From: a virus
Direction: 5' to 3' (one strand)
Virus record (IMG/VR): IMGVR_UViG_3300032296_003821
Coordinates: 30,995 to 94,994 of that record
Length of the DNA: 64,000 nucleotides
Position 1 is the first letter of the stretch; each line of letters begins with the position of its first letter. Below, piece by piece: positions 1,096 to 49,882 of this stretch. The notes beneath the pieces are model-generated. The model was not told the origin of the DNA, searched no databases, and saw only the letters and a list, made by a program, of their open reading frames with translations. Made by a program: the position numbers and the translations under genes.

Positions 1096-1096
1096 T

Positions 1097-3147: not shown

Positions 3148-3148
3148 A

Positions 3149-3877: not shown

Positions 3878-3927
3878 TATATAGACAGATTCATAGCCTG
3901 TCGACTTAAAAAAAAATTAATAGAGCT

Positions 3928-3961
3928 GTGGCCTAATCTTTGGATTAGGTCACTTTTTTTT
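3928..3961 (+). terminator. Rho-independent terminator
   Basis: GTGGCCTAATC-tttg-GATTAGGTCAC stem followed by T8. Confidence 0.8.
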
Positions 3962-3970
3962 GTATCTTTA
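3939..3970 (+). promoter_or_regulatory. Bacteroidota-type host-sigma (early/middle) promoter
   Basis: TTTG (3939) - 20 nt - TATCTTTA (3963), resembling the Bacteroidota -33 TTTG / -7 TAnnTTTG consensus; same spacing at 39321, 61072 and 62826. Confidence 0.6.
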
Positions 3971-3985
3971 AATATAAAATAGAAT

Positions 3986-5281: not shown

Positions 5282-5286
5282 AAGTT

Positions 5287-5817: not shown

Positions 5818-5829
5818 TATTTATAAATA
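5818..5829 (+). promoter_or_regulatory. Putative late promoter (ATATTTATA motif, palindromic form)
   Basis: TATTTATAAATA, 10 nt before ATG 5840; the motif recurs before structural genes. Confidence 0.6.
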
Positions 5830-5839
5830 AAATTAGACA

Positions 5840-6685: not shown

Positions 6686-7047
6686 TCCAAAATAAAACAT
6701 TCCAACTAAAGCTATCCCATCTTATCATAGGTGGGATACTTTTATTGTTACTAGTATTTTTAGTTAAGTGTGATGTTGAAAAACCTACCCCAACTGACAA
6801 ATACGAAAAACAAAAACAGGAAATTGAGCGACTAAGAAACAATATTGAAGTATTGAAATTTGGTCAAAAAGTTTTAAACAAACAACTCGATCAACAAAAT
6901 CACATTGTTGATTCATTGAATATAGAAATTAAACACACCGAAAAAGAGCTACAACAAACACGCACATATTATGGCAACAAAATTAAAGATCTTACTAGTG
7001 CTTCTAATACTGAGCTCGAGCAGTTTTTCTCAGACCGTTACAGATAA
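6682..7047 (+). CDS. Membrane-anchored or lipoprotein coiled-coil protein (spanin-like component)
   Basis: Hydrophobic LIIGGILLLLLVFLVK followed by Cys and a long coiled coil; overlaps the next ORF. Confidence 0.5.
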   Translation: MIQNKTFQLKLSHLIIGGILLLLLVFLVKCDVEKPTPTDKYEKQKQEIERLRNNIEVLKFGQKVLNKQLDQQNHIVDSLNIEIKHTEKELQQTRTYYGNKIKDLTSASNTELEQFFSDRYR

Positions 7048-7399
7048 AATTTGTTTTTCACACGATAAAGCACGAGCTATTGCAATTGACCTTACACGAG
7101 GTGATTCTGCTATTGCTGAATTGAAAGTTGTAAATAAAATGGTATGGCAGTTGAATGAAAAAATTGACGCCAAAGATAGCACAATCAGCATTTACGTATC
7201 TAAAGAAAAAAATTATCTTAAGCAAGTAGCAGACTATGAAAAGATTGTTACTGTACAAGATACTGTAATTAAAGGACTAGAAAAAGACGTTAAAGATCTT
7301 ACTCGCAAAAACGCTAACTTAAAGAAAGGTATTAAATGGTTAGGTGGAGGATTCGTGGCTTCCCTACTTGTTATTCTTACATTGGTGGCAGTTAAATAA
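6971..7399 (+). CDS. Secreted coiled-coil protein with a C-terminal TM anchor (spanin-like component)
   Basis: Signal peptide MATKLKILLVLLILSSSSFS/Q, coiled coil, C-terminal [20 protein letters not shown]. Confidence 0.5.
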   Translation: MATKLKILLVLLILSSSSFSQTVTDKICFSHDKARAIAIDLTRGDSAIAELKVVNKMVWQLNEKIDAKDSTISIYVSKEKNYLKQVADYEKIVTVQDTVIKGLEKDVKDLTRKNANLKKGIKWLGGGFVASLLVILTLVAVK

Positions 7400-9000: not shown

Positions 9001-9009
9001 AATAAAAAT

Positions 9010-29801: not shown

Positions 29802-32090
29802 ATGCCAAACTGGAAAAAAGTCATAGTATCGGGCTCGGATGCAGCCTTAAATTCTTTAAACGTAACATCCCACTTCACGGCAAGTGGTCTTATATATCCA
29901 ACTGTAGATGGTACTGTTGGTCAAGTTATTATAACTGATGGTGCTGGAAATCTTTCATTTTCTCCTATAGAAAATACAGCAATAGTAATTAAAAATGTTT
30001 CAGGAGGTACTATTGCAAAAGGTACTCCATGTTATATTACATCATCTGGTACCTCAGGTAATATTGCTGGTGTTTGGCCTGCAGATGCCTCTAATCCTGC
30101 ACGAATGCCTGCAGGAGTCATTGCAGGAGAGACATTAAATAATGGTGATGAGGGTGTAGGTTTAATTAATGGCTATATTGGAGGTGTAGACACTTCAGCA
30201 TTCGGTGCTGGTGATTCAATATATGTTAAAGCTGGTGGTGGTTATACTAATGTACGCCCAACAGGCTCATCTATTTTAGTACAAAAACTAGGTAATGTTG
30301 AAAAATCAGCTATCAATGGTTCAGGTGTAATCAACGGCCCAGCATATTATAATGATTTACCCAATATACAATCAGGTTATACTTGGGTAGGAAATAGCAA
30401 CGGAGTTGCAGTTGCAGTTGCAACATCTTCAATTCAAAATGTAGTAAGTGCTTCATATGCTACTTCAGCTTCATATGCTCAATTTGCCGCTACTCCAACA
30501 GTAGCAGGTGCAACAGGAGCAACAGGACCTCAAGGTGCTACTGGAATTACTGGCGCAACAGGAGTTACTGGTGCAACTGGACCTACTGGACCTCAAGGTG
30601 CTACTGGTGTAACTGGAGCAACAGGACCACAAGGAATTCAAGGAGCAACTGGGGTAACAGGAGCCACTGGTCCACAAGGAATACAAGGTGCAACAGGAGT
30701 TACTGGAGCTACTGGACCACAAGGGATACAAGGCGCAACAGGTATTACTGGAGCGACAGGCCCACAAGGAATACAAGGCGCAACAGGTATTACTGGAGCA
30801 ACAGGCCCAACTGGACCACAAGGTGCTACTGGTATTACTGGTGCCACTGGTATAACAGGTGCTACTGGAGTTACTGGAGCGACAGGCCCAACTGGACCGC
30901 AAGGTGCAACCGGAGTAACTGGAGCTACTGGACCAACAGGTCCACAAGGCGCAACAGGTGTAACTGGAGCAACTGGTCCACAAGGAATACAAGGTGCAAC
31001 AGGAATCACTGGTGCAACAGGACCACAAGGGATACAAGGTGCAACCGGAGTAACCGGAGCAACAGGTCCTCAAGGTCCACAGGGCGCAACCGGAGTAACA
31101 GGTGCTACTGGAGTTACTGGTGCAACAGGTATTACTGGAGCTACTGGACCACAAGGCCCGCAAGGCGCAACTGGGGTAACAGGTGCTACTGGTCCACAAG
31201 GACCACAGGGCGCAACCGGAGTAACCGGAGCAACAGGGCCACAAGGTCCGCAAGGAGCTACTGGGATAACAGGCGCAACTGGAGTAACTGGTGCTACTGG
31301 GATAACAGGTGCAACCGGAGTAACAGGTGCAACAGGTCCTCAAGGAATACAAGGCGCGACAGGAGTAACTGGAGCTACTGGTCCACAAGGAATACAAGGT
31401 GCTACTGGTGTAACTGGAGCTACTGGACCACAAGGTCCGCAAGGCGCAACAGGAGTAACCGGAGCTACGGGACCGCAAGGTCCACAAGGTGCCACTGGTG
31501 TGACAGGTGCGACAGGTGTAACTGGAGCTACTGGACCGCAAGGCGCAACCGGAGTAACCGGAGCTACTGGAGTTACTGGTGCAACAGGCGTTACTGGAGC
31601 TACTGGTGTTACAGGTGCTACTGGTGCTACATTAGCTGTAAACAATAACGTTAACAACTATGTTATTACCGCTACTGGAGGATCAAGTGTAAATGGTGAA
31701 GCTAACATGACGTTCGATGGTTCTACATTAAATGTTACAGGTACTATCCGCGCTACAACTAAATCCTTTATCATTGACCACCCAACCAAACTCAATAAAA
31801 AATTACAATATGGTGTACTCGAGGGACCTGAACATTCAGTTTACCTTAGAGGACATTTATATAATACTAATGCAATTATATTCCCAGAATATTGGTCTAC
31901 TTTAGTATCAATAGATTCAACAACTGTTTCATTAACACCAGTTGGAAAGTACCAAAATTTATGGGTAAAAGAAATTACAGATACTCACATTATTGTAGGT
32001 TCTGAAACAGAAGAAATCAATTGTTTCTATGCTGTGTTTGCAGAACGTAAAGATGTAGAAAAATTAGTAACAGAATTTGACAAAGAATAA
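29802..32090 (+). CDS. Collagen-like fibre protein
   Basis: [12 protein letters not shown]; ~125 Gly-X-Y triplets; C-terminal [23 protein letters not shown] domain. Confidence 0.85.
30507..31631 (+). repeat. Collagen-like repeat, ~125 Gly-X-Y triplets ([18 protein letters not shown])
   Basis: Uninterrupted 9-bp period. Confidence 0.95.
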
Positions 32091-34095: not shown

Positions 34096-35325
34096 ATGGC
34101 AGTAGCAAATGGGTTTGGAAAAGTAACAATGTCTGGTTCAGTGTTTATGTATGACACTGGAGATAATGTAAATTCTTATATTGGAGAACCTACTACAAAC
34201 TACCAATGGAATGGAGGGTCTGAAGTAACGCCATCATACAGTGATTGGACAGGAGCCCCAGCTCCCGTTAATGTAACTAATACTGTAAATCAAGGTCCTA
34301 TTAAAGGGGCAAAAACCTGGAAATTTATAAAAAATGGTAATTCAAACCAATGGCATGGTTGGGAAGCTACTTATGGAGGGATTTGGACAGGAAACTCTGG
34401 AGATGTTTGGACCACTAGTTATTGGTACAAAACAACTGCTCCTGCAGGAATTTCTAACTTTGGAATAGGATATTTTTACAAACCAGATTGGTCTGCTCCA
34501 TTTAATACAACAATATTAGCAGATGTTAGTAGTATTATTCCTGATGGGCAATGGCATTATAATTATACCGTAACAAGATTTAATGAAAATTATTCAAATG
34601 CTATTATTGTTGATGGTCCTTCTTGGGGATATAGTGGTCAAGCTGGCGAACTTTATATAAATGGACTACAATGGGAAAAAAAATTTCACTCAACTCCATT
34701 TGCATATGGCACTCGTTCTACTACACAAGGTTTATTACCATTAATAAGTAATTCAACAATTGATTTATCTAATACATCATTTGACTCAAATGCTCAATTG
34801 ATATTTGATGGTACTGATGATAGAATTTTACTTACTAATTTTACTAATAAACCTACTACATCCATTACTTGTGAAACTATAATTAAACCTACTAGACCTT
34901 CAGTAGGTACGGGTACTGTACGAGGTGGTGCTATATCATCAACTAATAGTATGTATTTAGGAATTATTGACTCGATAGACGGGGGAAATACATTTGCAAT
35001 GCATTGGGCTAACCAAACAGTAAATAGTAGGGTTTATAATTGGAACGGGCAAATACCTAATAATGCTTATTCTTATTTAGTTGGAACATATGACGGAACA
35101 ACTGCAAGAGCTTATCTTAATGGTATTGAAATATGGTCAACTTCACAAACTGGAAATATCCCTGATGCAGAATATTATATTGGCACATATGGTGGAGCCC
35201 CAGTTGATGGAGTTCATAATTTTAATGGCTATATCCCTGTAGCTAAAATATATAATAGAGCATTATCCCCCTCAGAAATTAAACAAAACTACAACAAATA
35301 TAAAACACGTTTTAATTTACCATAA
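34096..35325 (+). CDS. LamG-domain virion protein with an inserted carbohydrate-binding-like domain
   Basis: FDGTDD; LVGTYDG...YLNG; IYNRALSPSEIKQNYN..KTRF. Confidence 0.8.
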   Translation: MAVANGFGKVTMSGSVFMYDTGDNVNSYIGEPTTNYQWNGGSEVTPSYSDWTGAPAPVNVTNTVNQGPIKGAKTWKFIKNGNSNQWHGWEATYGGIWTGNSGDVWTTSYWYKTTAPAGISNFGIGYFYKPDWSAPFNTTILADVSSIIPDGQWHYNYTVTRFNENYSNAIIVDGPSWGYSGQAGELYINGLQWEKKFHSTPFAYGTRSTTQGLLPLISNSTIDLSNTSFDSNAQLIFDGTDDRILLTNFTNKPTTSITCETIIKPTRPSVGTGTVRGGAISSTNSMYLGIIDSIDGGNTFAMHWANQTVNSRVYNWNGQIPNNAYSYLVGTYDGTTARAYLNGIEIWSTSQTGNIPDAEYYIGTYGGAPVDGVHNFNGYIPVAKIYNRALSPSEIKQNYNKYKTRFNLP

Positions 35326-35337
35326 TATTTATCATAG

Positions 35338-35682
35338 ATGGATATATTTAAAAATAGAAGATGGTTGGTAATTCCAACAACATTAACAGGATCAATTGAC
35401 TTTGGACAAGTTTTAGAATCAGGTCCTGAAGCTTTACGTTTATCAGTAGATGGTACTCAAACATTTGTAAAATATGATATTAATATTGTAGAAGAAGATT
35501 ATACAGTAGTAGTACCAAACCCCGAAACTGGACAAGAAGATTCATATGTTGTATATGCTGGACTTTATGGAAGACCAGATATTTATTCCCCAGAATACCC
35601 AGAATATACACATCAACCAATGTTAGAATTACTAGCAACACCGGAATGGACACAACCATTACCTACAGAACCAATAAAGTAA
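35338..35682 (+). CDS. Phage hypothetical protein (fibre-associated)
   Basis: IDFGQVLE...[14 protein letters not shown]...YTH..ML.LL.TPEW; follows the LamG genes. Confidence 0.6.
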
Positions 35683-35683
35683 C

Positions 35684-38572
<2,889 letters not shown>

Positions 38573-38584
38573 AATAATTAATTT

Positions 38585-39088
38585 ATGGCAATTATAATAA
38601 ATGGCTTTAATACAGGTGCACCTAAAATAGTAGGTCTTCAAGTAGGAAATGGTACCACAGTAACAGGTACTACCTCAGCAACCCTAAGTGCAACTATTAC
38701 TATCCCTGCAAATACTTTAGCTACTAACTCAATTTTAGAGGTAGTTTGGTCTACTGTTAGATCTAGTGGTGCAAATAATGTTATTCAAGGACAAGTATAT
38801 GTTAATACATCAAATTCATTAACAGGTGCTACCCAAATTGCATTAGGTGCCAATATAGCAGCAGCATCCTCAGCAGTTAAAGGTGCTAGGGATATACAGA
38901 AACTAAACACTAGTTGTCAAATAATGCAAGTTACTCAATTTGCCTCAGATTTTTCTGTTACAGCCGCTCCTTCAACCTTTACTTTAAATAATGCAAATAC
39001 TATATATTTTCTTTTTGCTTGCCTAAATTTATCAGCATCAGATTCATCCTATATAAACAGAATAAGAATTACAGAATATGCCCCTTAA
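38585..39088 (+). CDS. Putative fibre tip/structural protein
   Basis: S/T/A-rich beta protein; ITIPANTL motif. Confidence 0.5.
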   Translation: MAIIINGFNTGAPKIVGLQVGNGTTVTGTTSATLSATITIPANTLATNSILEVVWSTVRSSGANNVIQGQVYVNTSNSLTGATQIALGANIAAASSAVKGARDIQKLNTSCQIMQVTQFASDFSVTAAPSTFTLNNANTIYFLFACLNLSASDSSYINRIRITEYAP

Positions 39089-39314
39089 TTTAACTAAAAT
39101 TGAAAATGGGTTTGAGATGAATGAATCTCCCTATTTATTTGAAAACTTTGACCATGAAGGTCAATCAGTTAGATACTATATCCAATCCACAGATCAAGTT
39201 CTTGTAGGAACCGATCAAGGAATTATATTATTTGATTTAACGGTATCTATTGATAACGTATTTTATAATACTATTCAAGAATTTACTGATAAGTTATTTG
39301 AACCTTTATCTTAA
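39078..39314 (+). CDS. Hypothetical protein
   Basis: 78-aa ORF overlapping the upstream stop. Confidence 0.55.
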   Translation: MPLNLTKIENGFEMNESPYLFENFDHEGQSVRYYIQSTDQVLVGTDQGIILFDLTVSIDNVFYNTIQEFTDKLFEPLS

Positions 39315-39320
39315 TAGATA

Positions 39321-39352
39321 TTTGGTTATTTAAAAAATAGTTTTTATATTAT
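39321..39352 (+). promoter_or_regulatory. Bacteroidota-type host-sigma promoter
   Basis: TTTG (39321) - 20 nt - TATATTAT (39345). Confidence 0.5.
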
Positions 39353-39370
39353 TGTTATATTTAATTTGTT

Positions 39371-40267
39371 ATGGAAAAAAAATATTCAATTTTTCATATT
39401 GAAGGTGGACTAGGCAAACATATTGCAGCAACTGCTGTTGCACGTTGTATTAAGAAAAACCACCCCAATAGAGATCTTATTATAGTTTGTGCTTACCCAC
39501 AAATATTTTTAAATTTAGACTTTGTATCTCGTGTGTATAGAATAGGACATACTCCTTATTTCTATAAAGATTACATTGATCAAAAAGATTCAATGATTTT
39601 CAAACATGAACCATATTTTACAACAGAACATATCCACAAGAAACTCCCATTAATTGAAAATTGGTGTAAGTTATTTGGTTTAAAATACAATGGTGAACAA
39701 CCCGAAATTGTATTTAACAAAAGAGAGCTTCAAAAATATCGTCAAATTTGGCAAGCAGAAAAACCAATATTTGTAATCCAAAGTAATGGAGGTATGCTAC
39801 CTTCTGATAGTGGCTTACCTTATCGTTGGACTAGAGATATTCCTTTTAATATCGTACAAAATATTGTAGAAAGATATAAAGAACAATACACAATCTATCA
39901 AGTCACTAGACCAGGATCCCCAGTAGCATCCGGTGTTATACAAATATCACATGAAATGGCTTCAATGGAATTTCTTTCTATTCTTTTAAATTCCGAAAAA
40001 CGATTATTGATAGATTCTTCATTGCAACATGCCGCGGCTGCTTTAAATTTACCTTCAACAGTACTGTGGGCAGGCACATCTCCAAAAGTATTTGGATATG
40101 ATATTCACGATAATATTGTAGCTAAAATACCTGAAGGTCAAAAACTACCTGATAGTTATTTATTTGATTATGATTTTGAAGGTCAAGTCCATGAATACCC
40201 ATATACAGAAGACTTTATATTTGATGTAGATACCATAGTAAAATCATTAACACGACAAAGTTTATAA
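39371..40267 (+). CDS. Glycosyltransferase, GT-B fold (GT9/heptosyltransferase-like)
   Basis: IEGGLGKHIAATAV N-terminal motif; LLIDSSLQHAAAALNLPSTVLWAGTSPKVFGY matches the GT9 DS..H.A.A...P...L.G.T motif. Confidence 0.75.
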   Translation: MEKKYSIFHIEGGLGKHIAATAVARCIKKNHPNRDLIIVCAYPQIFLNLDFVSRVYRIGHTPYFYKDYIDQKDSMIFKHEPYFTTEHIHKKLPLIENWCKLFGLKYNGEQPEIVFNKRELQKYRQIWQAEKPIFVIQSNGGMLPSDSGLPYRWTRDIPFNIVQNIVERYKEQYTIYQVTRPGSPVASGVIQISHEMASMEFLSILLNSEKRLLIDSSLQHAAAALNLPSTVLWAGTSPKVFGYDIHDNIVAKIPEGQKLPDSYLFDYDFEGQVHEYPYTEDFIFDVDTIVKSLTRQSL

Positions 40268-41082
40268 TGCAAAAGTTATTTTTTCAATCTAGTTTACCTA
40301 GAGCAGGTTCAACCCTATTACAAAATATTTTAGGACAAAACCCAGATTTTTATGTAACACCAACTTCCGGTGTTTTAGAATTGGTTTATGCCGCACGTAA
40401 CAATTATTCAAATTCTGCTGAATTTAAAGCACAAGATGATAACTTGATGCGAGAAGGATTTAGACAATTTTGCCATGATGGTGTTACTGGATTTTTTAAA
40501 GCAGTAACAGATAAACCATACGTAATAGACAAAAGTAGAGGATGGGGATACCATAGAGATTTCCTTGATTTCTTCTATCCAAACCCAAAAATTGTTTGTA
40601 TGATTAGAGATCCTAGAGCAATATTTGCCTCTATGGAAAAAAACTTTAGAAAATCCCCCGAATTAGATAAAGGTATAGTTAACCATGCAGAAATGTCAGG
40701 TGTAACCACGGAACAACGCATTGATATATGGGCTGCAGGTGTCCCGGTAGGAATGGCATTTCAGCGTTTATATCAAATGATTAAAGAGGGAACAGATAAA
40801 AATATGTTATTTGTAAAATATGAAGATTTAATGAAAGATCCTCAAGGTGAAATGAATCGTATTTACAAATATTTAGAAATTCCTTCATACACACACGATT
40901 TTGATAATATAGAACAAATTACTCAAGAAGATGATGCTGTATATGGTGTTTATGGTGACCATGTTATTAAACCTAAATTAACTCCTGTAAAACCTGATTG
41001 GAACGAAGTTTTAGGAAAAAATGCAAGTGGTTGGATCAAAAACAACTATGCATGGTTCTATGAATATTTCGGATATATTTAA
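40267..41082 (+). CDS. PAPS-dependent sulfotransferase
   Basis: SLPRAGSTLL (5'-PSB loop); DKSRGW; MIRDPRAIFAS (3'-PB); VKYEDL. Confidence 0.85.
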   Translation: MQKLFFQSSLPRAGSTLLQNILGQNPDFYVTPTSGVLELVYAARNNYSNSAEFKAQDDNLMREGFRQFCHDGVTGFFKAVTDKPYVIDKSRGWGYHRDFLDFFYPNPKIVCMIRDPRAIFASMEKNFRKSPELDKGIVNHAEMSGVTTEQRIDIWAAGVPVGMAFQRLYQMIKEGTDKNMLFVKYEDLMKDPQGEMNRIYKYLEIPSYTHDFDNIEQITQEDDAVYGVYGDHVIKPKLTPVKPDWNEVLGKNASGWIKNNYAWFYEYFGYI

Positions 41083-41090
41083 TATTTATA
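41083..41090 (+). promoter_or_regulatory. Putative late promoter
   Basis: ATATTTATAA upstream of ATG 41101. Confidence 0.55.
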
Positions 41091-41100
41091 AACAAAAAAT

Positions 41101-41433
41101 ATGACAACAACCTGGACAATCCCAAGCTTAAAACGTTTAACTGATGACGGTTTAGTAGTACAAGCAACTTACATTTTTCAAGCTCAAGAACAGAATTTTA
41201 TCAACCGTAAAGTAGGTGATATGACTTTTTCTGGTAGTATAGATGAGCCTGGATTTATTCCTTACGATCAACTTACTCAAGATGATGTATTAGGGTGGGT
41301 ATTTGCTGAATTAGGTGATCAAAAAGCTGTTATTGAAGCCGAAATCACCCTAGCAACTGAAACCCAATACTCAGCATCAATTGCAAATCCATATTCAAAT
41401 GGAGTTCCTTGGAATTCACAACCACAAGGATAA
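41101..41433 (+). CDS. Small phage (tail-associated) protein
   Basis: TWTI..L....DGLVV...; FIPYDQLTQDDVLGWV; ends GVPW. Confidence 0.6.
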   Translation: MTTTWTIPSLKRLTDDGLVVQATYIFQAQEQNFINRKVGDMTFSGSIDEPGFIPYDQLTQDDVLGWVFAELGDQKAVIEAEITLATETQYSASIANPYSNGVPWNSQPQG

Positions 41434-41451
41434 TATAAAATTTAAATAGTT

Positions 41452-41922
41452 ATGATTTATTGGTTTACCGGACAACCTGGAGCAGGCAAAACAGTTTTAG
41501 CAACTGCTCTAAAACAAGAATTGGACAATACTTTCCATGTAGATGGAGATGATTTACGTGCCATTTTTGATAACAAAGATTATAGTGAAACTGGTAGAAG
41601 AAAAAATATTGAGCTAGCACAACAACTAGCTCATTTTCTTCACAATAAAGGAAACAATGTAGTTGTTTCCCTTGTTTCGCCCTATAAAGATCAACGCGAA
41701 GAATTCAAAAACAAACTTGGAGAATCGTTAAAGGAGTTTTATGTTCATACTACTGAAATACGAGGTAGGGAAAATTTTCATGTTGAAAACTATCAACAAC
41801 CAACAGAAAATTATCTTGATCTAGACACTACAAATATTTCAGTTGAAGAATGTTTACAAAAAATTAGAAGTTATGCAGAATTGGAGCAAAAAAGTACACG
41901 TACAGTCATCACTGAAATCTAA
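41452..41922 (+). CDS. cysC: Adenylyl-sulfate (APS) kinase
   Basis: IYWFTGQPGAGKT; VDGDDLR; DYSETGRRKNI; VVSLVSPY...R; lid region shortened. Confidence 0.8.
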   Translation: MIYWFTGQPGAGKTVLATALKQELDNTFHVDGDDLRAIFDNKDYSETGRRKNIELAQQLAHFLHNKGNNVVVSLVSPYKDQREEFKNKLGESLKEFYVHTTEIRGRENFHVENYQQPTENYLDLDTTNISVEECLQKIRSYAELEQKSTRTVITEI

Positions 41923-42277
41923 ACCTAATCAATATGCTATGTTTATTGGTAGGTGGCAACCACTACACGATGGGCATAAAGCATTATTTCAACAAGCTTT
42001 AGATAAAGGAAAAAATGTTTGGATTGCGATTAGAGATGTTGAAACAACTGAATCAAATCCATTTAATGCCCAAGAAGTACTTAAAAATATTGGAGAAGAA
42101 TATAAAGAACTTTGTGGACAAGGTCGAGTTAAAGTTAGTATTATTCCTGATATATGTTCCGTTGAGTTTGGTAGAGGAGTGGGCTATGATATTATTGAGC
42201 ATATACCCCCTACTCAAGTAGCAGAAATCTCAGCTACAAAAGTACGTGAACAAATGCGTAAAGAAGGTAAGCTATGA
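41873..42277 (+). CDS. HxGH-family nucleotidyltransferase (candidate minimal ATP sulfurylase)
   Basis: MFIGRWQPLHDGH; IAIRD; NPF; GRGVGY; ISATKVRE. ATG at 41873. Confidence 0.65.
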   Translation: MQNWSKKVHVQSSLKSKPNQYAMFIGRWQPLHDGHKALFQQALDKGKNVWIAIRDVETTESNPFNAQEVLKNIGEEYKELCGQGRVKVSIIPDICSVEFGRGVGYDIIEHIPPTQVAEISATKVREQMRKEGKL

Positions 42278-42720
42278 AAACAAAAATAAAAAAATTCCAA
42301 ATTCGCTTTAATGTTAATAGCCAATCAGAACATGAACGTTGGCGCCTTATTGAAGATGGTAAAGAATATTTAGTATCTGACATCATCATTGATGGCCACA
42401 CATATACTACAATGGATTGGATGGAAGATCTTCAAGAATATAAATGGCATATCAGCTGTGAGGGATACGTTAATGTCCAAAACAATGTAGCATATGTTGT
42501 AACAGTGAAAGAAGAAGCTGTAATGACACGACATATTCTAAAAACATTATCTTATCGTATTTTAGGTACTTTAACAACTGTTTTAACTGCCTATGCTTTA
42601 GGAGTTTCACTTGAATTATCTTCATTATTAGGTGTAGGAGAACTTATGATTAAACCTACATTATATTTTTTCCATGAACGTGTTTGGTACAAATATATTA
42701 GGATAGGAAAAAAGAAATAA
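42274..42720 (+). CDS. Hypothetical N-terminal domain fused to a DUF2061-like membrane domain
   Basis: C-terminal RHILKTLSYRILGTLTT...IKPTLYFFHERVW. Confidence 0.65.
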   Translation: MKTKIKKFQIRFNVNSQSEHERWRLIEDGKEYLVSDIIIDGHTYTTMDWMEDLQEYKWHISCEGYVNVQNNVAYVVTVKEEAVMTRHILKTLSYRILGTLTTVLTAYALGVSLELSSLLGVGELMIKPTLYFFHERVWYKYIRIGKKK

Positions 42721-42723
42721 CCA

Positions 42724-42731
42724 TATTTATA
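42724..42731 (+). promoter_or_regulatory. Putative late promoter (near-leaderless)
   Basis: ATATTTATA ends 4 nt before ATG 42736. Confidence 0.55.
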
Positions 42732-42735
42732 ACAT

Positions 42736-43389
42736 ATGGCACAAACCTTATCAACTTCTGGAATAGTTACTGGACAAGATGTTCAAGCATGGCATGTTAC
42801 TCAATCAATAGATGCTTTTACTGGAGTAAGTGATTTTGATATTAGAGTATCTGGTTCATTTACATTGACTGGTAGTTTAAAAGTTAGTGGAAGTGTTTTA
42901 GGTAAAACATCTGAATCTGCTTCAATTGCTATAACATCTTCTTATACTAATCAAGTTAGTGTTGCTAATTCATCCTCATTTGCAGTAGTTAATTCTGGGG
43001 ATTTATTAACTTTACAACTATATGCTCCTCAAATTGCTACTTTAGCAGCAAGTACTATATATTTTATGGGGGTAGGAACTAGTCTTATGACTGCTAATAG
43101 AACAGGAATAGTTGTTCCTATAAATGCGGTTATAGTTAAAGCAGTTATTATTTCTACAATAAAAGGATCCCTTACAGGTATGACATCAGCCCCATCTATT
43201 ATGAAAAATAATAGTTCTATTGCTTCTCTTGAAAGTTTAAGATATATTAATCCTATAAATCATGTATTATCTAATATTAATCAAGAAGTATCAGCAGGAG
43301 ATATATTAAGTATTCGTATAGTAACTGATTCGGGACCAACCCCAACTAACGTTACTCATAAAATGATTTTAACCTTAAAACCTCTTTAA
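42736..43389 (+). CDS. Virion structural protein, paralog 1 of 3
   Basis: LSTSGIVTG..VQAWHVTQSIDAFTG..FDI.VSGS; PTNVTH near the C-terminus. Confidence 0.6.
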   Translation: MAQTLSTSGIVTGQDVQAWHVTQSIDAFTGVSDFDIRVSGSFTLTGSLKVSGSVLGKTSESASIAITSSYTNQVSVANSSSFAVVNSGDLLTLQLYAPQIATLAASTIYFMGVGTSLMTANRTGIVVPINAVIVKAVIISTIKGSLTGMTSAPSIMKNNSSIASLESLRYINPINHVLSNINQEVSAGDILSIRIVTDSGPTPTNVTHKMILTLKPL

Positions 43390-44042
43390 TGGCATCTATC
43401 CTATCAAATAGTGGAATATCTTCGGGTAGTATAGTTGAAACAACTCATATTACTCAAATAGTTGATGCTTTTACAAATACTCAAGCATATGATATCACTT
43501 TATCTGGTTCTTTAACAGTAACAGGTAGTGTAATTTTAGATACTACTATTAATAAAAACTTTTTTGGTACTGCATCTTTTGTAACAACATCATCATTTTC
43601 TCTTTCGGCAAGTAATGTATCATATGCTCATACAACTTCATTTGCAAATAATGATACTACATTTTTAGAACTATACCATCCTGTAACCACATTTAATTCA
43701 GCATCTACTTTTTATTTCGCTGATGGAGACCCAGCTATAGGTTCCCCTGAAGGTGTAGGAACTATTTTACCATTTAATGGGTTAATAGTTAGTGCTAGTG
43801 CTACTTCAATTGTAAATGGATCTACAGGAACTTATCAATCTAGTCTTTTTCTAGTTTCAGAAAGTGCTCAAGTTCAAATTGGAGATTTAACCTATACCGC
43901 TAAAAACCAATCAACAAGAGGAGTAATTAACCTCCCATTTACTTCAGGAAGTAGAATATATTGTAGACTTACTACTGATAATGGTACTACTCCAACAAAT
44001 GTTATACATAACGTGATTTTATATATTAAATATAATGGCTAA
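43389..44042 (+). CDS. Virion structural protein, paralog 2 of 3
   Basis: LSNSGISSG..HITQIVDAFT...YDITLSGS; PTNVIH. Confidence 0.6.
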   Translation: MASILSNSGISSGSIVETTHITQIVDAFTNTQAYDITLSGSLTVTGSVILDTTINKNFFGTASFVTTSSFSLSASNVSYAHTTSFANNDTTFLELYHPVTTFNSASTFYFADGDPAIGSPEGVGTILPFNGLIVSASATSIVNGSTGTYQSSLFLVSESAQVQIGDLTYTAKNQSTRGVINLPFTSGSRIYCRLTTDNGTTPTNVIHNVILYIKYNG

Positions 44043-44733
44043 TACATTATCTAAAACAGGTATCCAAATTAATAATGTCATACAACCATGGCATGTTACT
44101 CAATCTATAGATGCTTTTACAGGAGTATCAGCTTATGATATTACTTTATCTGGTTCATTAGATATAATTGGCCCTTTAAATTTAGATTCTCCTGTAACAG
44201 GAAACTTAATTACAAGTGCTTCTTATGCTGTTACGTCTTCATTTGCTTTAACTGCTGTTTCTGCAAGTAATGTAAATTATGCTTTGACATCATCTGATAG
44301 TACTTTTTTACAATTGCATCATGGATTATTTCAAAATCCTGCTCAAAATACAATATATTATTTTGCCCTTGAACCATTATCTGGATCAGGAATTACATTA
44401 ACAACCGACTCAGGTAAAGTAGGAACATATTTTCCTAAAACAGGGATTACTTTTAATAAATGTTCTATCACTACAACAGTACAAGGAACAGCTGGATCAT
44501 CAGAAGCATCAGCTTATACTTTAGTTATAGGAGGATCAAGTGTATCTTTACCTAGTTTAACTCATAATCAACCTGTTTCTTCTAGCACCAATATCATTTC
44601 AGATATTTCTTTAAGTACTCTTGATTCAAGAATTTATGTTGTTTGGAGAACTCCCACAACATGGGCAACTGCACCAACTAATGTTTCTCATAACATAGTT
44701 TTATATGGAACTCGAGGAACAGCAAATATATAA
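44035..44733 (+). CDS. Virion structural protein, paralog 3 of 3
   Basis: LSKTGI..IQPWHVTQSIDAFTG..YDITLSGS; PTNVSH. Confidence 0.6.
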   Translation: MANTLSKTGIQINNVIQPWHVTQSIDAFTGVSAYDITLSGSLDIIGPLNLDSPVTGNLITSASYAVTSSFALTAVSASNVNYALTSSDSTFLQLHHGLFQNPAQNTIYYFALEPLSGSGITLTTDSGKVGTYFPKTGITFNKCSITTTVQGTAGSSEASAYTLVIGGSSVSLPSLTHNQPVSSSTNIISDISLSTLDSRIYVVWRTPTTWATAPTNVSHNIVLYGTRGTANI

Positions 44734-44741
44734 TATTTATA
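44734..44741 (+). promoter_or_regulatory. Putative late promoter
   Basis: ATATTTATAA upstream of ATG 44759. Confidence 0.55.
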
Positions 44742-44758
44742 AACAAAACCCTTAAATT

Positions 44759-45022
44759 ATGTCAATCGTTTCAGAAAAAAAGTTCTTAACAGAAGAAGAA
44801 TTAACAACTTTAAAAGAAATTCAATCAAACACCCGCATTCTTATTTCTGAGTTAGGTGAAATTGAATTAATTAAAATTCAAGTAGAAAATCGTTATAATA
44901 ATGCAAAACAATTTTTAAGCGATCTATCTACTAAAGAACAAGAATTTACCCAATCCATGCTTCAAAAATATGGTAGAGTTAATATCAGCCCAGAAGACGG
45001 TGAAATTACTTTATTAGATTAA
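44759..45022 (+). CDS. Small coiled-coil protein
   Basis: LTEEEL..LKEIQ...ELGEIEL...KYG.VNI..EDGEI. Confidence 0.6.
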   Translation: MSIVSEKKFLTEEELTTLKEIQSNTRILISELGEIELIKIQVENRYNNAKQFLSDLSTKEQEFTQSMLQKYGRVNISPEDGEITLLD

Positions 45023-45041
45023 TCTAGATTGAAATACACCA

Positions 45042-45049
45042 TATTTATA
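45042..45049 (+). promoter_or_regulatory. Putative late promoter
   Basis: ATATTTATAA upstream of sheath 1. Confidence 0.6.
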
Positions 45050-45068
45050 ATAAAATAATTTATTTACA

Positions 45069-47177
45069 ATGGCAGAAACAATTGTATCACCTGGTGTATT
45101 AGCAATAGAGAACGACCAATCATTTATCACTCAAGGACCTGTTACAGCGGGTGCCGCTATTGTAGGACCAACAGTTAAAGGTAAAGTAGGAATTCCTACT
45201 ATTGTAACTTCATATAGTGATTATTTAAATAAATTTGGTGCTACTTTTATTAGTGGTAGCCAAACTTATACTTACTTTACTTCAATCTCAGCATATAACT
45301 ATTTTAATAATGGTGGTACTAGTTTACTAGTTACTCGTGTTGTAAGTGGATCATTTACCCCAGCAACATCTTCTACAATTCCAACTTCAACTGCATTAAC
45401 ATCGGCATCAGCAAATATAGATTTAACATTTATTTCTGCTAGTGTAGCAGCAGTAGGATCAGGATCTTTTAATTTAAATGGAATTACTTTATTTTATTCT
45501 GGTTCTGCACCTGCAAATACTGCTAATACAATATATTTAAATACTGCTTCATTTGCAGGAGCAACAGTAGCTCATTATGTCGCTACCTCCTCTCAATATG
45601 TTAATTTTAGTAGTTCAGTAGCTCCATATAGTTCATCTTGGCAAAACATTAGTTCAAGTATTAACTCACCTAATTTAGTGTTAACTTCTACTGGTTCTAA
45701 TGGATTACTAGGAAATTCTTATTTTTATACTTCAGGAAGTACTACAGTATATTTTTCTGGAGGTACAAATACAGAAGCATTCATTTTAGAAACACTATCC
45801 GAAGGTGAAATAATGAATAGTACTGGCCCTTCAGGTGCTTTTGGTACTTTATTAAGTGGATCTTCCGAAAATATTAGATGGCAAGTTACTAATACTAATA
45901 TTAATACAGGTACATTTACTTTAATAATTCGTCAAGGTAACGATTCAACTATTTCTCCATCTATTTTAGAAACTTGGACAAATTTATCACTTGACCCATT
46001 TGCTTCAAATTATATTGAAAAAGTAATTGGTAATCAAGTTGAAACTGTTCAATTTGACTCTTCAACCGGTGAATATTATGTTGAATTAGTAGGCAATTAT
46101 CCTAATAGATCACGTTATGTACGTGTTAAACAAGTATTAGTAACTACTCCTAATTATTTAGATAATTTAGGAACCCCTAAACCAGAATACACCGGTTCAA
46201 TTTGTTGGTTCTCAAGCGGATCTTTTGGTGCTGCTTCAGGAAAAAATACTCCTACAGGAATTGCTGGGGGATATTATGAAAATATTTCTAATAATAATAT
46301 TCAAGGACTTTCAGCAAACAATTATACTCAGTCTATTTCTTTGCTATCTAATCAAGATGCTTATAATTACAATTTATTAACTGCTCCTGGTTTAATAGCA
46401 GATTCTGTAAATTATCCTTCTCATACTTCTGTAATCAATACTATGATTTCTACAGTTCAAAATAGAGGAGATGCTATGACAGTATTTGATTTAGTCGGAT
46501 ATGGTGCTAATGTTCTTGAAGTTACATCAAATGCTTCAGGATACGATACTTCATATGCTGCTACTTACTGGCCTTGGGTTAAAACAATTGACCCAAATAC
46601 AGGAACTCAAGTTTGGGTACCATCTACTGTTATGATTCCTGGTGTATATGCCTTTAATGATAGTGTTGCTGAACCTTGGTTTGCTCCTGCTGGTATTAAC
46701 CGTGGAGTATTAACTAACGTTATTCAAGCAGAACGTTCATTGACTCAAGGAAATAGAGATTTACTTTACGAAAGTAATATTAATTCAATTGCTACTTTCC
46801 CTAATACAGGTGTAGTAGTATTTGGTCAAAAGACATTACAGAAAAAACCTAGTGCTCTTGATCGTGTAAATGTACGTCGCTTATTAATTGAACTTAAAAA
46901 CTACATTTCTCAAGTAGCAGATACTTTAGTATTTGAACAAAATAATGTAATTACACGAAATAATTTCTTATCTCAAGTTAATCCTTATTTAGCATCAGTT
47001 CAACAAAGACAAGGTTTAACAGCTTTTAGAGTAGTAATGGATGAATCTAATAACCCTCCTTCAGTAGTAGATCAAAATCAATTAATTGGTCAAATTTATC
47101 TACAACCTACTAGAACAGCGGAATTTATTATATTAGATTTCAATGTATTACCTACTGGTGCAACATTTCCTGCTTAA
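45069..47177 (+). CDS. Tail sheath protein, copy 1
   Basis: SPGVLAIEND; YAATYWPWV; PWFAPAGINRG; FGQKTL; DRVNVRRLLI; LQPTRTAEFIILDF. Confidence 0.95.
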   Translation: MAETIVSPGVLAIENDQSFITQGPVTAGAAIVGPTVKGKVGIPTIVTSYSDYLNKFGATFISGSQTYTYFTSISAYNYFNNGGTSLLVTRVVSGSFTPATSSTIPTSTALTSASANIDLTFISASVAAVGSGSFNLNGITLFYSGSAPANTANTIYLNTASFAGATVAHYVATSSQYVNFSSSVAPYSSSWQNISSSINSPNLVLTSTGSNGLLGNSYFYTSGSTTVYFSGGTNTEAFILETLSEGEIMNSTGPSGAFGTLLSGSSENIRWQVTNTNINTGTFTLIIRQGNDSTISPSILETWTNLSLDPFASNYIEKVIGNQVETVQFDSSTGEYYVELVGNYPNRSRYVRVKQVLVTTPNYLDNLGTPKPEYTGSICWFSSGSFGAASGKNTPTGIAGGYYENISNNNIQGLSANNYTQSISLLSNQDAYNYNLLTAPGLIADSVNYPSHTSVINTMISTVQNRGDAMTVFDLVGYGANVLEVTSNASGYDTSYAATYWPWVKTIDPNTGTQVWVPSTVMIPGVYAFNDSVAEPWFAPAGINRGVLTNVIQAERSLTQGNRDLLYESNINSIATFPNTGVVVFGQKTLQKKPSALDRVNVRRLLIELKNYISQVADTLVFEQNNVITRNNFLSQVNPYLASVQQRQGLTAFRVVMDESNNPPSVVDQNQLIGQIYLQPTRTAEFIILDFNVLPTGATFPA

Positions 47178-47202
47178 TAACATATTTTAAGGAAGTTTTA
47201 GA

Positions 47203-47210
47203 TATTTATA
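47203..47210 (+). promoter_or_regulatory. Putative late promoter
   Basis: ATATTTATAA upstream of sheath 2. Confidence 0.6.
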
Positions 47211-47223
47211 ATAAAAAAATACA

Positions 47224-49347
47224 ATGGCAAATTTCACAGTTTCCCCTGGAGTAGCAATTAGCGAAATAGACAACACATTTTTGGCTGGATTACCAATCCC
47301 TCCTGGAGCCGCAATTATCGGCCCAACAGTAAAAGGACCAGTTGAAGTACCAACATTGGTTACTTCATATTCTGATTTTACAACATTATTTGGAGATACT
47401 TTTATTAGTGGTGGTAATTCATACTCTTATCTAACTTCACAAGCTGCTTTTAATTATTTTAATTATGGTGGAACAGCATTATGGGTAGCAAGAGTTGCTA
47501 GTGGATCTTTTACTCCCGCAACTAGTACTACTATTTCGAATAATGTAATAGCTGTTACAGGAGCTTTTTCATCAGCATCATTTAATGCTTCTTCATTTTT
47601 TACAGGATCTGCTACAGGATCTTGGTCAGGAATGAGGATTGAAATTCCTGGGGTGAATGACTATTATGTAGTTCCGAATAATAGTTCATATAACTATTTT
47701 AATAATTTAATAGACACATATTATTCTTCTAGTGGTGCTGCGACTAACAACAATACTGATAATTATATGGCTGTTGTAGTTTCTACTATTAATAACCCAA
47801 CAGCAGAACTTAAAACAATAGGCCTAACAGCTTCATACGACTCAGGAACTGATATCTTTACCCTTTCCGCTATCAACTCAGGAGTTTCTTTAAATGGTGT
47901 AAATATTTACAAAGATGCATATGCTGGAGGTGTTGGTACTTTAGTAGCTACTTTAGCAGGTGGTACTACTAATATAACTTCAAATTCATTTACTCTTGAA
48001 ACCCTTTCTGAAGGTATTATTATGAATAATTCAGGTTCGGAAGTTGCGGGAGCTCTAGTTTCAGGAAGTATAGCTAATATAAGATTTGAAATTACCAACC
48101 CAAATACTGGTTCAGGTACTTTTAACTTAATAATTCGTCGCGGAGATGATACAACTACTAATAAAATAGTATTAGAAACATGGAATAATTTAACATTAGA
48201 TCCAAATTCACCTAGATTTATTTCTAAAGTAATCGGTAATCAATTGCTTTCTTACAATTCTGTTACTAACCAAATGGACGTAACTGGTGATTATCCAAAC
48301 CAATCACGTTATGTTCGTGTAAAAGCCGTTAATTCATTAACTCCAAATTACTTAAACTCAAATGGTTTCCCTCAATCACAATACACTGGCTCAATCCCAG
48401 CTGCTCAAAGTGGTTCATTTACTGGTGCTATAGGTACTGTAAATCCTGTTATCAATTTGAATGAAAATATTACTCAAACAAATACTCAAGGATTAGCAGC
48501 AAGTGATTATAATAATATGATCGCACTTTTAAGTAACGCCGATTTCTACCAATACAACGTAATATTCACCCCAGGACTAATAGCTTCATATCATGCATCT
48601 CAAGTTAATAGCTTAATTGCTAATTCACAGAACAGAGGTGATTGTTTGTATATTCCTGATATGGTTGAATATTCAAGTAATGTTGCTAGTGCAGTAAGTA
48701 CAGCCCAATCATTTGACAACTCATATGCAGCAACATATTGGCCTTGGGTTCGTTTAGCAGATTCAGCTACTGGAAAATTAGTTTGGGCACCGGCTTCAAC
48801 AGTAATTCCGGGTGTATATGCATTTAACGATAGAGTATCTGCTCCATGGTTTGCACCAGCAGGTATTAATCGAGGTGGTTTAGGTACTGTATCATATGCA
48901 CAATATAAATTAACTCAAGCAGAAAGAGATACATTATATGCAAATAACATTAACCCAATTGCAACATTACCTAAACAAGGTGTGGTAGTATTTGGACAAA
49001 AAACATTACAAAAATCCCAATCAGCTCTTGATCGTGTAAATGTACGTCGTTTGATGATTGAATTAAAAGGATATATTCGTCAAATTGCTGATACGATTGT
49101 ATTTGAACAAAATACTATTACAACAAGAAATGTATTCCTTTCTAAAGTTACTCCATACTTAGAAAATATTCAACAAAAACAAGGATTATACGCATTTAAA
49201 GTTGTAATGGATGAATCTAACAACGGACCAGCAGTAATTGACCAAAATCAATTAATCGGCCAGATTTATATTCAACCAACACGCACAGCTGAATTTATTT
49301 CCCTAGATTTCATCTTACTACCAACAGGAGCTGAATTTCCGGGATAA
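47224..49347 (+). CDS. Tail sheath protein, copy 2
   Basis: SPGVAISEID; YAATYWPWV; PWFAPAGINRG; DRVNVRRLMI; IQPTRTAEFI. Confidence 0.95.
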   Translation: MANFTVSPGVAISEIDNTFLAGLPIPPGAAIIGPTVKGPVEVPTLVTSYSDFTTLFGDTFISGGNSYSYLTSQAAFNYFNYGGTALWVARVASGSFTPATSTTISNNVIAVTGAFSSASFNASSFFTGSATGSWSGMRIEIPGVNDYYVVPNNSSYNYFNNLIDTYYSSSGAATNNNTDNYMAVVVSTINNPTAELKTIGLTASYDSGTDIFTLSAINSGVSLNGVNIYKDAYAGGVGTLVATLAGGTTNITSNSFTLETLSEGIIMNNSGSEVAGALVSGSIANIRFEITNPNTGSGTFNLIIRRGDDTTTNKIVLETWNNLTLDPNSPRFISKVIGNQLLSYNSVTNQMDVTGDYPNQSRYVRVKAVNSLTPNYLNSNGFPQSQYTGSIPAAQSGSFTGAIGTVNPVINLNENITQTNTQGLAASDYNNMIALLSNADFYQYNVIFTPGLIASYHASQVNSLIANSQNRGDCLYIPDMVEYSSNVASAVSTAQSFDNSYAATYWPWVRLADSATGKLVWAPASTVIPGVYAFNDRVSAPWFAPAGINRGGLGTVSYAQYKLTQAERDTLYANNINPIATLPKQGVVVFGQKTLQKSQSALDRVNVRRLMIELKGYIRQIADTIVFEQNTITTRNVFLSKVTPYLENIQQKQGLYAFKVVMDESNNGPAVIDQNQLIGQIYIQPTRTAEFISLDFILLPTGAEFPG

Positions 49348-49393: not shown

Positions 49394-49882
49394 ATGGCAA
49401 TTTTAAATCCAAACGAAATCTTTTATACAGCGTTTGAACCTAAACAAACAAACCGATTTATCCTTTATATGGATGGTGTTCCATCATATTTGGTAAAAGG
49501 AGTAGGAGCAGTGTCTTTAACACAAACAGCAGTTGCCCTTAATCACATCAACGTTCAACGTTATGTAAAAGGAAAAACTGTTTGGAACACTATTCAATTT
49601 ACCCTCTATGATTCAATTACACCTTCTGGTGCACAAGCAGTAATGGAATGGGTACGTTTAGGCCACGAATCAGTAACTGGCCGTGATGGTTATTCAGATT
49701 TCTATAAAAAAGATATTACGTTTAACGTATTAGGACCTGTAGGTGATATTGTTTCTGAATGGATTGTTAAAGGAGCCGTTATTACAGAAGCTAACTTTGG
49801 TGATTACAACTGGGATGATGATGGAACCCCAGTAAATGTTACAGTAACTGTACAACCTGACTACTGTATCTTGAACTATTAA
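49394..49882 (+). CDS. Tail tube protein (T4 gp19-like)
   Basis: FEPKQTNRF; W.TIQFTLYD; AQAVMEW; YKKDI...LGPVGD.V.EW..KGA; follows the sheaths. Confidence 0.9.
   Translation: MAILNPNEIFYTAFEPKQTNRFILYMDGVPSYLVKGVGAVSLTQTAVALNHINVQRYVKGKTVWNTIQFTLYDSITPSGAQAVMEWVRLGHESVTGRDGYSDFYKKDITFNVLGPVGDIVSEWIVKGAVITEANFGDYNWDDDGTPVNVTVTVQPDYCILNY

Follow-up and report, generated by a model that had tools for sequence, protein, structure and literature searches.

First, we analyzed the gene content of a locus between tail genes of a large lake-type phage. The window, the whole stretch of DNA analyzed, comprises 64,000 nucleotides and corresponds to positions 30,995 to 94,994 of IMG/VR record IMGVR_UViG_3300032296_003821, a 95-kb myovirus contig (94,994 bp) which was rated about 59% complete by CheckV. 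Six tightly packed genes were found between a fibre gene upstream and two sheath paralogs and the tube gene downstream (Table 1). They encode a GT9-fold glycosyltransferase-like protein (predicted fold), a sulfotransferase, a DUF7936 protein, a trimmed APS kinase, a small HxGH nucleotidyltransferase (NT) and a DUF2061 membrane protein. The cluster described in the sequence-only reading was therefore confirmed.

Table 1. Coordinates of the cassette and of neighboring features in the window.
Coordinates	Strand	Size (aa)	Feature
35684..38572	+		Fibre with collagen-like GATG triplets and YadA-head-like GGGxxNTASGxxS repeats; candidate acceptor (inference only)
39371..40267	+	298	GT9-fold glycosyltransferase-like protein (predicted fold)
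40267..41082	+	271	Predicted PAPS-dependent sulfotransferase
41101..41433	+		DUF7936 small protein, optional cassette member
41452..41922	+	156	Trimmed APS kinase
41873..42277	+	134	HxGH nucleotidyltransferase (NT), candidate minimal ATP sulfurylase
42274..42720	+		DUF2061 protein: N-terminal domain of about 85 aa plus two-helix membrane hairpin
42736..44733	+	217, 217 and 232	Three Ser/Thr-rich paralogs
45069..49347			Two sheath paralogs

Gene arrangement and family assignments

The glycosyltransferase-like gene shares one base with the sulfotransferase gene (TAATG) and is translationally coupled to it. NT starts with an ATG inside the kinase gene and overlaps it by 50 nt in the +1 frame, while the DUF2061 gene overlaps NT by ATGA. 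A programmed frameshift joining kinase and NT was considered and rejected, as the A6 run in the overlap was not conserved in the close relatives L001 and L002 (two of the related viral loci described below), which read CCAAGAAAG, while the NT start ATG was invariant. Thus, we read these as two overlapping genes. The cassette lies on the same strand as the flanking fibre and sheath genes with only short gaps. A promoter and terminator scan of 35000-47500 gave nothing informative and no terminator-like site at the cassette borders. No PAPS reductase (PF01507) was found in the whole contig, which is, however, incomplete.

The sulfotransferase matched Sulfotransfer_3 (PF13469; 5.6e-25, 89.3 bits) and Sulfotransfer_1 (PF00685; 5e-17, 62.6 bits), both above cutoff, and a NoeE-like family (1e-10). 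Its PRAGST 5'-PSB loop and RDPRA 3'-PB motif align to PRSGTT and RDGRA of TPST1. The APS kinase scored 59 bits against a cutoff of 21.1 for PF01583 (7.4e-16), and 67 bits (1.7e-18) against 138.7 for the NCBIfam equivalog TIGR00455, indicating a divergent member. The top 15 solved-structure hits were APS kinases or PAPS synthases, and the motifs GQPGAGKT (P-loop), VDGDDLR and SLVSPY align to the APS kinases 8a8h and 7yq0. The Pfam match covers only model positions 4-110 of 152, and the C-terminal lid region (KGxYxxAR ... FTGI) is shortened and diverged, as in other phage copies.

For the glycosyltransferase-like protein the Pfam GT9 match was below cutoff (16.2 against 22 bits), and sequence and profile searches against PDB found nothing. 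The GT9 fold was supported instead by an AlphaFold model (pLDDT 89), whose top ten fold hits were all GT9, the best being 3tov, WaaF (1psw), WaaC and TibC with E-values of 5e-11 to 4e-7. The donor-binding D-x-G/S-x-x-H motif was recovered, with IDSSLQHAAAAL aligning to WaaC VDTGLSHLTAAL (WaaC 251-301), and D215, S216 and H220 were invariant in 28 homologs. Alignment of the profile to E. coli WaaC with hhalign covered only this C-terminal motif, so that the catalytic base (WaaC Asp13) could not be mapped. The N-terminal motif reads GGLGK where GT9 has LGD.

NT matched CTP_transf_like (PF01467, 4.2e-6), but it is not a member of the Sat family, as it scored 14.9 bits against a cutoff of 24.3 for PF01747. 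The listed Foldseek hits were almost all NMNAT and PPAT, with no Sat among them. Best sequence and fold matches were archaeal NMN adenylyltransferases (MJ0541, PDB 1f9a; M. thermautotrophicus, PDB 1ej2) and PPAT, with which NT shares the GRxQPxHxGH, NPF and ISxTxxR motifs and the Rossmann core. However, these matches covered only the N-terminal 60-80 residues (57-70 residues for the PDB profile matches), the segment that binds NMN is missing, and the score for archaeal-type NMNAT (TIGR01527) was 28.3 bits against a cutoff of 181.2.

The DUF2061 protein matched PF09834 at residues 88-138 (1.9e-14, 54.3 bits against a cutoff of 23.1). Versions with only the hairpin (67-81 aa) occur in relatives. 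An Atlas search with its N-terminal domain gave no usable hit, and papers mentioning DUF2061 say nothing on function. The DUF7936 protein matched PF25590 (3.5e-16) and phrog_7802, while its description as virion-type remains a suggestion of the sequence-only reading. The upstream fibre matched tail-fibre PHROGs. The three Ser/Thr-rich paralogs (26-29% Ser+Thr) gave no Pfam, PHROG or NCBIfam match.

Occurrence of the cassette genes in viruses and cellular genomes

A DNA-level search of the phage collection gave only one weak hit. The same genes co-occurred in 67 related IMG/VR loci in shuffled orders, which excludes a chance grouping. The glycosyltransferase gene lies next to the sulfotransferase gene in most of the 67 loci, and the kinase was always tied to a sulfotransferase. 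Gene content in the 47 fully flanked loci was nested. Sulfotransferase plus glycosyltransferase without kinase, NT or DUF2061 were found in 12, the kinase was added without NT in 6, and NT was present in 28, always with the kinase. NT without kinase was found in 0. DUF2061 travels with the kinase/NT half of the cassette. DUF7936 was present beside the cassette in 8 loci at differing positions, and the Ser/Thr-rich paralogs were present in the relatives L003, L053 and L054. Relatives carry a second sulfotransferase, a GT8 and a second GT9-like gene, or an FkbM methyltransferase plus a GT9 above the Pfam cutoff. In locus L057 the GT9-family gene beside the related sulfotransferase scored 64.9 bits.

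Linkage to fibre genes, which had been named beforehand as a test, was examined across the relatives. Repeat proteins similar to the upstream fibre lie within 10 kb of the sulfotransferase in 45 of 67 loci, and fibre-like proteins lie within two genes of the cassette in 30 of 44 loci. We are aware that this enrichment is modest, with 68% observed against about 45% expected from the background of the flanks themselves, and that the loci are not independent. In a different phage region, capsid, NT, APS kinase and a Sulfotransfer_2 gene were found in a row. On the other hand, the kinase-NT fusions in Xylella phage Sano and the sulfotransferase of cyanophage S-SCSM1 lie outside structural modules.

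Fusions of NT to genuine APS kinases were found in both orders. In haloarchaea, analyzed by searches for related loci and of genomes, a sulfotransferase gene directly precedes the fusion. Of 151 sampled Halobacteria genomes 9 have an APS kinase. The 4 stand-alone kinases each have an adjacent Sat, while the 5 genomes with fused kinases have neither Sat nor a true CysD. In Poseidoniia (MGII) archaea and one Flavobacteriales MAG the kinase-NT pair sits beside methionine-cycle genes.

A proposed sulfation route and its possible acceptors

The sequence-only reading had proposed a complete route from sulfate via APS and PAPS to a sulfated glycan decorating the virion, rather than a sulfur-assimilation gene set, and this interpretation was supported in part. 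A phage-encoded route to a sulfated product is well supported by genomic context, and a glycan product is favored by the additional GT8, GT9-like and sugar-type methyltransferase genes of relatives, which point to an oligosaccharide. The gene content, family matches, fusions and co-occurrence were shown by our analysis, while the activities are inferred. In our view, which we hold with moderate confidence, NT would adenylylate sulfate (ATP + sulfate -> APS + PPi), which is inferred from fusions, nested gene content, the neighboring sulfotransferase in haloarchaea and complementarity with Sat. The APS kinase would phosphorylate APS to PAPS, which rests on family membership, and the sulfotransferase would move the sulfate onto a sugar laid down by the coupled glycosyltransferase, which is again inferred. 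As signal or membrane segments were absent from all four enzymes, read by eye from the translations, this chemistry would take place in the cytoplasm. The most likely single acceptor would be a repeat-rich fibre or tail surface protein made at the same time, in parallel to TibC/AAH. The virion as acceptor is, however, only suggested by position, and no evidence was obtained for the proposed mimicry of polysaccharides or shielding of the particle.

A serious, though less likely, rival is the same chemistry acting on a host envelope glycan such as LPS core or capsule, masking receptors so that progeny are not trapped on debris or superinfection is blocked. GT8 and GT9 are classic LPS-core families, a membrane protein belongs to the set, and rhizobia use PAPS-dependent sulfation of LPS and Nod factor. 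However, the cassette sits inside the run of virion structural genes and stays in fibre-rich neighborhoods across rearranged relatives, while receptor masking is usually an early or lysogenic function. It is unlikely that NT makes an ADP-sugar for the glycosyltransferase, like the second domain of HldE, or acts in NAD or CoA metabolism, with the phage relying on host APS. Its similarity to NMNAT and PPAT, the low Sat score and the usual use of ADP-heptose by GT9 enzymes speak for this. In contrast, the glycosyltransferase occurs without NT in 19 of 47 loci, whereas NT follows the kinase, to which it is also fused. In haloarchaea, Poseidoniia and Flavobacteriales genomes NT occurs with the kinase and, where the neighboring genes were scanned, without a GT9 gene nearby. 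Fusion carriers lack Sat and CysD, while non-carriers with a kinase have Sat, and matches to NMNAT are limited to the N-terminal 60-70 residues.

An acceptor other than a sugar, namely protein tyrosine, a small molecule or modified DNA, is also considered unlikely. The best solved sequence relatives of the sulfotransferase are tyrosine sulfotransferases, though weakly (TPST1, 6e-8), and phage glycosyltransferases can hypermodify DNA (Pyle 2024, cited in PMC12619734), which is not excluded as an acceptor. However, the TPST similarity is confined to the PAPS-binding motifs, and the position aligned to the TPST catalytic Glu, read by eye, is not conserved. The sulfotransferase is almost always coupled to a glycosyltransferase, relatives add more sugar enzymes, and a NoeE-like (fucose sulfation) match exists. 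Least likely is an auxiliary metabolic gene set boosting host assimilatory sulfate reduction, as phage cysC is usually read, as freshwater phage cysC genes are interpreted (PMC10914622) and as the methionine-cycle neighbors in Poseidoniia and the Flavobacteriales MAG might suggest. The kinase is embedded in a sulfotransferase/glycosyltransferase cassette in all related loci, no PAPS reductase is on the contig, and PAPS is a dead end without one unless used for sulfotransfer.

If NT activates sulfate, it would be a new and much smaller solution to the first step of all sulfate use, and would explain how haloarchaea with an APS kinase but without Sat or CysDN make PAPS. The reading of phage cysC genes as sulfur-assimilation helpers would change, as here they would feed a sulfotransferase. 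A phage-made sulfated glycan, on the virion or on the host surface, would be a new kind of phage surface chemistry which could bear on adsorption and host range. Only tentatively, phages of this group may coat their fibres or tail surface with a sulfated oligosaccharide built by their own GT9/GT8-type enzymes and sulfotransferase. PAPS would then come from a two-gene mini PAPS synthase whose NMNAT-like half is a third, previously unrecognized class of ATP sulfurylase, also used by haloarchaea and some other cellular lineages lacking Sat and CysDN. Literature searches on phage sulfotransferases, PAPS, sulfated virions and an NMNAT-like ATP sulfurylase found no description, and the Haloferax "open issues" paper does not discuss it.

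Comparable systems are available. In rhizobial nodPQ-nodH and mycobacterial CysDNC with Stf0, PAPS-making genes are kept next to a sulfotransferase for sulfation of a specific glycan rather than sulfur assimilation, but with a CysD/CysN-type heterodimer instead of a small NMNAT-like protein. Here, the system is viral and sits among tail genes. In the bifunctional PAPS synthases (human PAPSS1/2, PDB 1x6v; Aquifex Sat-APS kinase, PDB 2gks) an APS kinase is physically coupled to a sulfate-adenylylating HxGH-superfamily domain, an activity that is only inferred for the phage NT. However, the adenylyltransferase half of the phage pair is about 110-134 aa against roughly 400 aa for a whole Sat-type enzyme (212 positions for the Pfam catalytic-domain model), and in this window the two halves are separate, overlapping genes. 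The heptosyltransferases TibC/AAH and WaaC/WaaF share the GT-B fold and the C-terminal donor motif with the shorter phage protein, and tibC and aah lie next to the repeat-adhesin gene they modify, much as the phage gene lies near a repeat-rich fibre gene. Phage-encoded glycosyltransferases modify virion proteins in mycobacteriophages (Freeman 2023, as cited in PMC12619734), where no sulfation is reported and the enzymes belong to other families. The kinase-NT fusion is also present in cultured phages, the Sano-like phages of Xylella, Stenotrophomonas and Xanthomonas.

Cassette genes and their family assignments

The 94,994-bp IMG/VR virus record, of which bases 30995-94994 were analyzed, is linear and was rated 59% complete by CheckV. 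All genes called in the window were found on the + strand, and myovirus structural genes surround the cassette. The coordinates of the cassette genes, of the flanking genes, and of the loci used for comparison are summarized below.

Coordinates of the cassette, its flanking genes, and selected comparison loci
Sequence	Coordinates	Feature	Junction or remark
Window	29802-32090	Collagen-like tail fibre	
Window	35684-38572	Collagen-like tail fibre	
Window	39371-40267	GT-like protein	Shares one base (TAATG) with the next gene
Window	40267-41082	Sulfotransferase	18-nt gap follows
Window	41101-41433	DUF7936 protein	18-nt gap follows
Window	41452-41922	Kinase	Overlapped by NT for 50 nt
Window	41873-42277	Nucleotidyltransferase (NT)	+1 frame; ATGA overlap with the next gene
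Window	41873-41922	Kinase/NT overlap	Contains an A6 run
Window	42274-42720	DUF2061 protein	
Window	42736-44733	Three tandem Ser/Thr-rich paralogs	217, 217, and 232 aa
Window	45069-47177	Tail sheath paralog	Tandem with the next gene; about 700 aa
Window	47224-49347	Tail sheath paralog	About 700 aa
Window	49394-49882	Tail tube gene	
L017 (related viral locus)	6614-10819	Expanded cassette	
L058 (related locus)	1853-2815	NT copy with N-terminal Cys-rich module	
L084 (Crocinitomicaceae MAG)	4761-10375	Kinase-NT pair	Beside split methionine synthase genes
L087 (386-kb contig binned as Patescibacteria)	7806-11122	NT, APS kinase, and Sulfotransfer_2 genes in a row	Phage major capsid gene about 0.9 kb upstream
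L090 (Poseidoniia (MGII) archaeon)	7-4682	Overlapping kinase-NT pair	Between AdoHcy hydrolase/SAM synthetase genes and SHMT gene
L091 (Xylella phage Sano)	15406-16143 (record)	gp35, annotated "kinase"	Kinase-NT fusion

The assignment of the sulfotransferase was solid, with matches to Sulfotransfer_3 (5.6e-25) and Sulfotransfer_1 (5e-17), and both PAPS-binding motifs aligned to solved enzymes. The kinase passed the Pfam cutoff for APS_kinase with 59 bits, and its top 15 solved relatives were APS kinases or PAPS synthases. The P-loop, DGD, and SLVSPY motifs were present, while the lid region was shortened and the stricter NCBIfam equivalog cutoff was not reached. The GT-like protein scored below the GT9 cutoff (16.2 bits). 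However, a model built on 28 homologs (pLDDT 89) matched only GT9 structures at the top of the fold search, namely 3tov, WaaF, WaaC, and the protein heptosyltransferase TibC, with E-values from 5e-11 to 4e-7. The donor motif aligned to WaaC residues 251-301, while the alignment gave no position for the catalytic base. NT passed the cutoff for CTP_transf_like (4.2e-6) and failed the Sat model (14.9 against 24.3 bits). The matches to DUF2061 and DUF7936 were clear. The A6 run in the kinase/NT overlap could in principle give a +1 shift; however, it was not conserved in the related loci L001 and L002.

Conservation of the gene set and context of the small nucleotidyltransferase

In order to test whether the grouping is real, IMG/VR was scanned with the sulfotransferase, which yielded 67 loci at 49-99% identity on contigs from 7 to 385 kb. 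Using tblastn with the proteins of the window, the GT, sulfotransferase, kinase, NT, and DUF2061 genes were found to recur in at least four different orders. In the 47 loci with at least 4 kb on both sides the gene content beside the sulfotransferase was nested. The GT only, without kinase, NT, or DUF2061, was found in 12 loci, the GT plus DUF2061 without kinase or NT in 1 locus, and the kinase in addition, without NT, in 6 loci. NT was present in 28 loci, always with the kinase, and in 0 loci without it. We are aware of the fact that these loci are not all independent, as some are near-duplicates. This nesting is what a supply chain ending at the sulfotransferase predicts. As the GT occurred without NT in 19 of these 47 loci, NT is tied to the kinase and not to the GT. 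DUF2061 travels with the kinase/NT half of the cassette, either as a protein of about 148 aa or as a hairpin-only protein of 67-81 aa, and was not found next to the cellular pairs examined. A membrane anchor or an anion path can only be guessed as its role. DUF7936 is an occasional member of the cassette at varying positions.

About 7,640 proteins of similar length matched NT. Longer relatives included kinase-NT fusions in phage-like contigs and 285-aa "adenylyl-sulfate kinase" proteins of haloarchaea at 43-48% identity, and NT-kinase fusions in the opposite order were also found. Invariant residues included G26, R27, Q29, P30, H32, H35, R54, N62, P63, R101, G104, Y105, S120, and R125. A profile search of PDB and a Foldseek search with a model of pLDDT 81 both placed NT nearest to archaeal NMNAT, NadM, and PPAT. 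The matches covered only the N-terminal 60-80 residues, so the part that binds NMN is missing. NT is therefore not a member of the Sat family. NT copies of about 320-430 aa (proteins P0241-P0248 and P0262, and the copy in locus L058) carry an N-terminal Cys-rich module, one of them with NUMOD3, which we read as homing-endonuclease-like. In locus L057, a relative of the cassette, a NUMOD3 gene lies inside the cassette.

In Haladaptatus, Haloarcula, and other haloarchaea a 407-aa sulfotransferase-family gene was found directly upstream of the fusion, including the three haloarchaeal replicons L068, L071, and L078, of which L068 and L071 are plasmids. A YqcI/YcgG gene follows the fusion in L068 and a gene of the same size follows it in L071, and several of the loci of this search are located on megaplasmids. 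Five such genomes have no Sat and no true CysD (best CysD hits about 30 bits against a cutoff of 397), and their only strong APS kinase is the fused one. In an even sample of 151 genomes of that class, 9 have an APS kinase. Four of these are stand-alone, each with Sat immediately upstream, while five are located in open frames of about 300 aa that also hold the NT domain, and these have no Sat and no true CysD. One of these five genomes (G001) was already among the five haloarchaeal genomes described before. By our own count this split corresponds to 1 in 126 under Fisher's exact test, without correction for relatedness.

In the contig labelled Patescibacteria (L087) a phage capsid gene lies one unnamed ORF upstream of the NT, APS kinase, and Sulfotransfer_2 genes; the triad therefore recurs with an unrelated sulfotransferase family. 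This contig may be a huge phage or a prophage binned as a cell. The genomes of the Poseidoniia archaeon (L090) and of the Crocinitomicaceae MAG (L084) also showed no Sat or CysD. In the family of that MAG 40 of 61 sampled genomes have CysD, while the two NT carriers do not, although MAG incompleteness weakens these last observations. Taken together, we consider it likely that NT is a sulfate adenylyltransferase, which is inferred and not shown.

Product, acceptor, and related systems

The best solved relatives of the sulfotransferase are tyrosine sulfotransferases; however, the similarity is weak and confined to the PAPS motifs, and a NoeE-like match (fucose sulfation) was also obtained. Relatives extend the cassette with sugar enzymes. 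The expanded cassette of L017 runs sulfotransferase, GT8, GT9-like, GT9-like, sulfotransferase, and is followed, after one 261-aa gene, by a 2,503-aa repeat protein. L057 has an FkbM-type methyltransferase and a GT9 that passes the cutoff at 64.9 bits. These additional sugar enzymes favour a sulfated oligosaccharide as the inferred product.

The acceptor can at present only be inferred from genomic position and enzyme family. Several observations speak for the virion. The cassette lies inside the run of structural genes on the same strand, and no terminator-like site was found at its borders. The upstream fibre (35684-38572) combines about 110 residues of collagen-like G-A-T-G-x-T triplets with some 40 YadA-head-like GGGxxNTASGxxS repeats, many of which contain N-x-S/T. 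Similar repeat proteins were found within the 10-kb flanks in 45 of 67 loci, sometimes on the other strand, and where they are absent other giant repeat proteins flank the cassette. The GT9-type enzymes TibC and AAH glycosylate repeat adhesins encoded next to them. Furthermore, mycobacteriophage virions are glycosylated by phage enzymes (PMC12619734). Other observations speak against the virion. The enrichment is modest, as a fibre-like protein lies within two genes in 30 of 44 loci, against about 45% expected from the flanks' own 13.7% background. GT8 and GT9 are the LPS-core families, and the kinase-NT fusions in Xylella phage Sano and a related sulfotransferase in cyanophage S-SCSM1 lie outside structural modules. 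As a rough estimate, a virion protein is the leading but tentative candidate, short of being more likely than not, while a host envelope glycan and any other acceptor are each possible, to about the same lesser degree.

The system, as inferred, works like rhizobial nodPQ-nodH or a PAPS synthase coupled to a sulfotransferase, while the putative sulfate-activating part belongs to a different, far smaller family. In the literature searched, phage cysC is treated as an assimilation gene (PMC10914622), and no description of this enzyme or of sulfated phage particles was found.

The nearest cellular copies of the kinase-NT pair are found in Crocinitomicaceae and other Flavobacteriales MAGs, at 56-59% identity for NT, and the GC content of the window is about 33%. 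A Bacteroidota host is plausible, but not shown. In the cultured siphophage Sano, gp35 sits among early genes, near a gene annotated as cysteine dioxygenase and with no annotated sulfotransferase, and related copies are present in Stenotrophomonas, Xanthomonas, and Clavibacter phages. The three Ser/Thr-rich paralogs downstream of the cassette gave no match in Pfam, PHROGs, or NCBIfam and are conserved next to the cassette in the related loci L003, L053, and L054. Both tail sheath paralogs match phrog_23 end to end.
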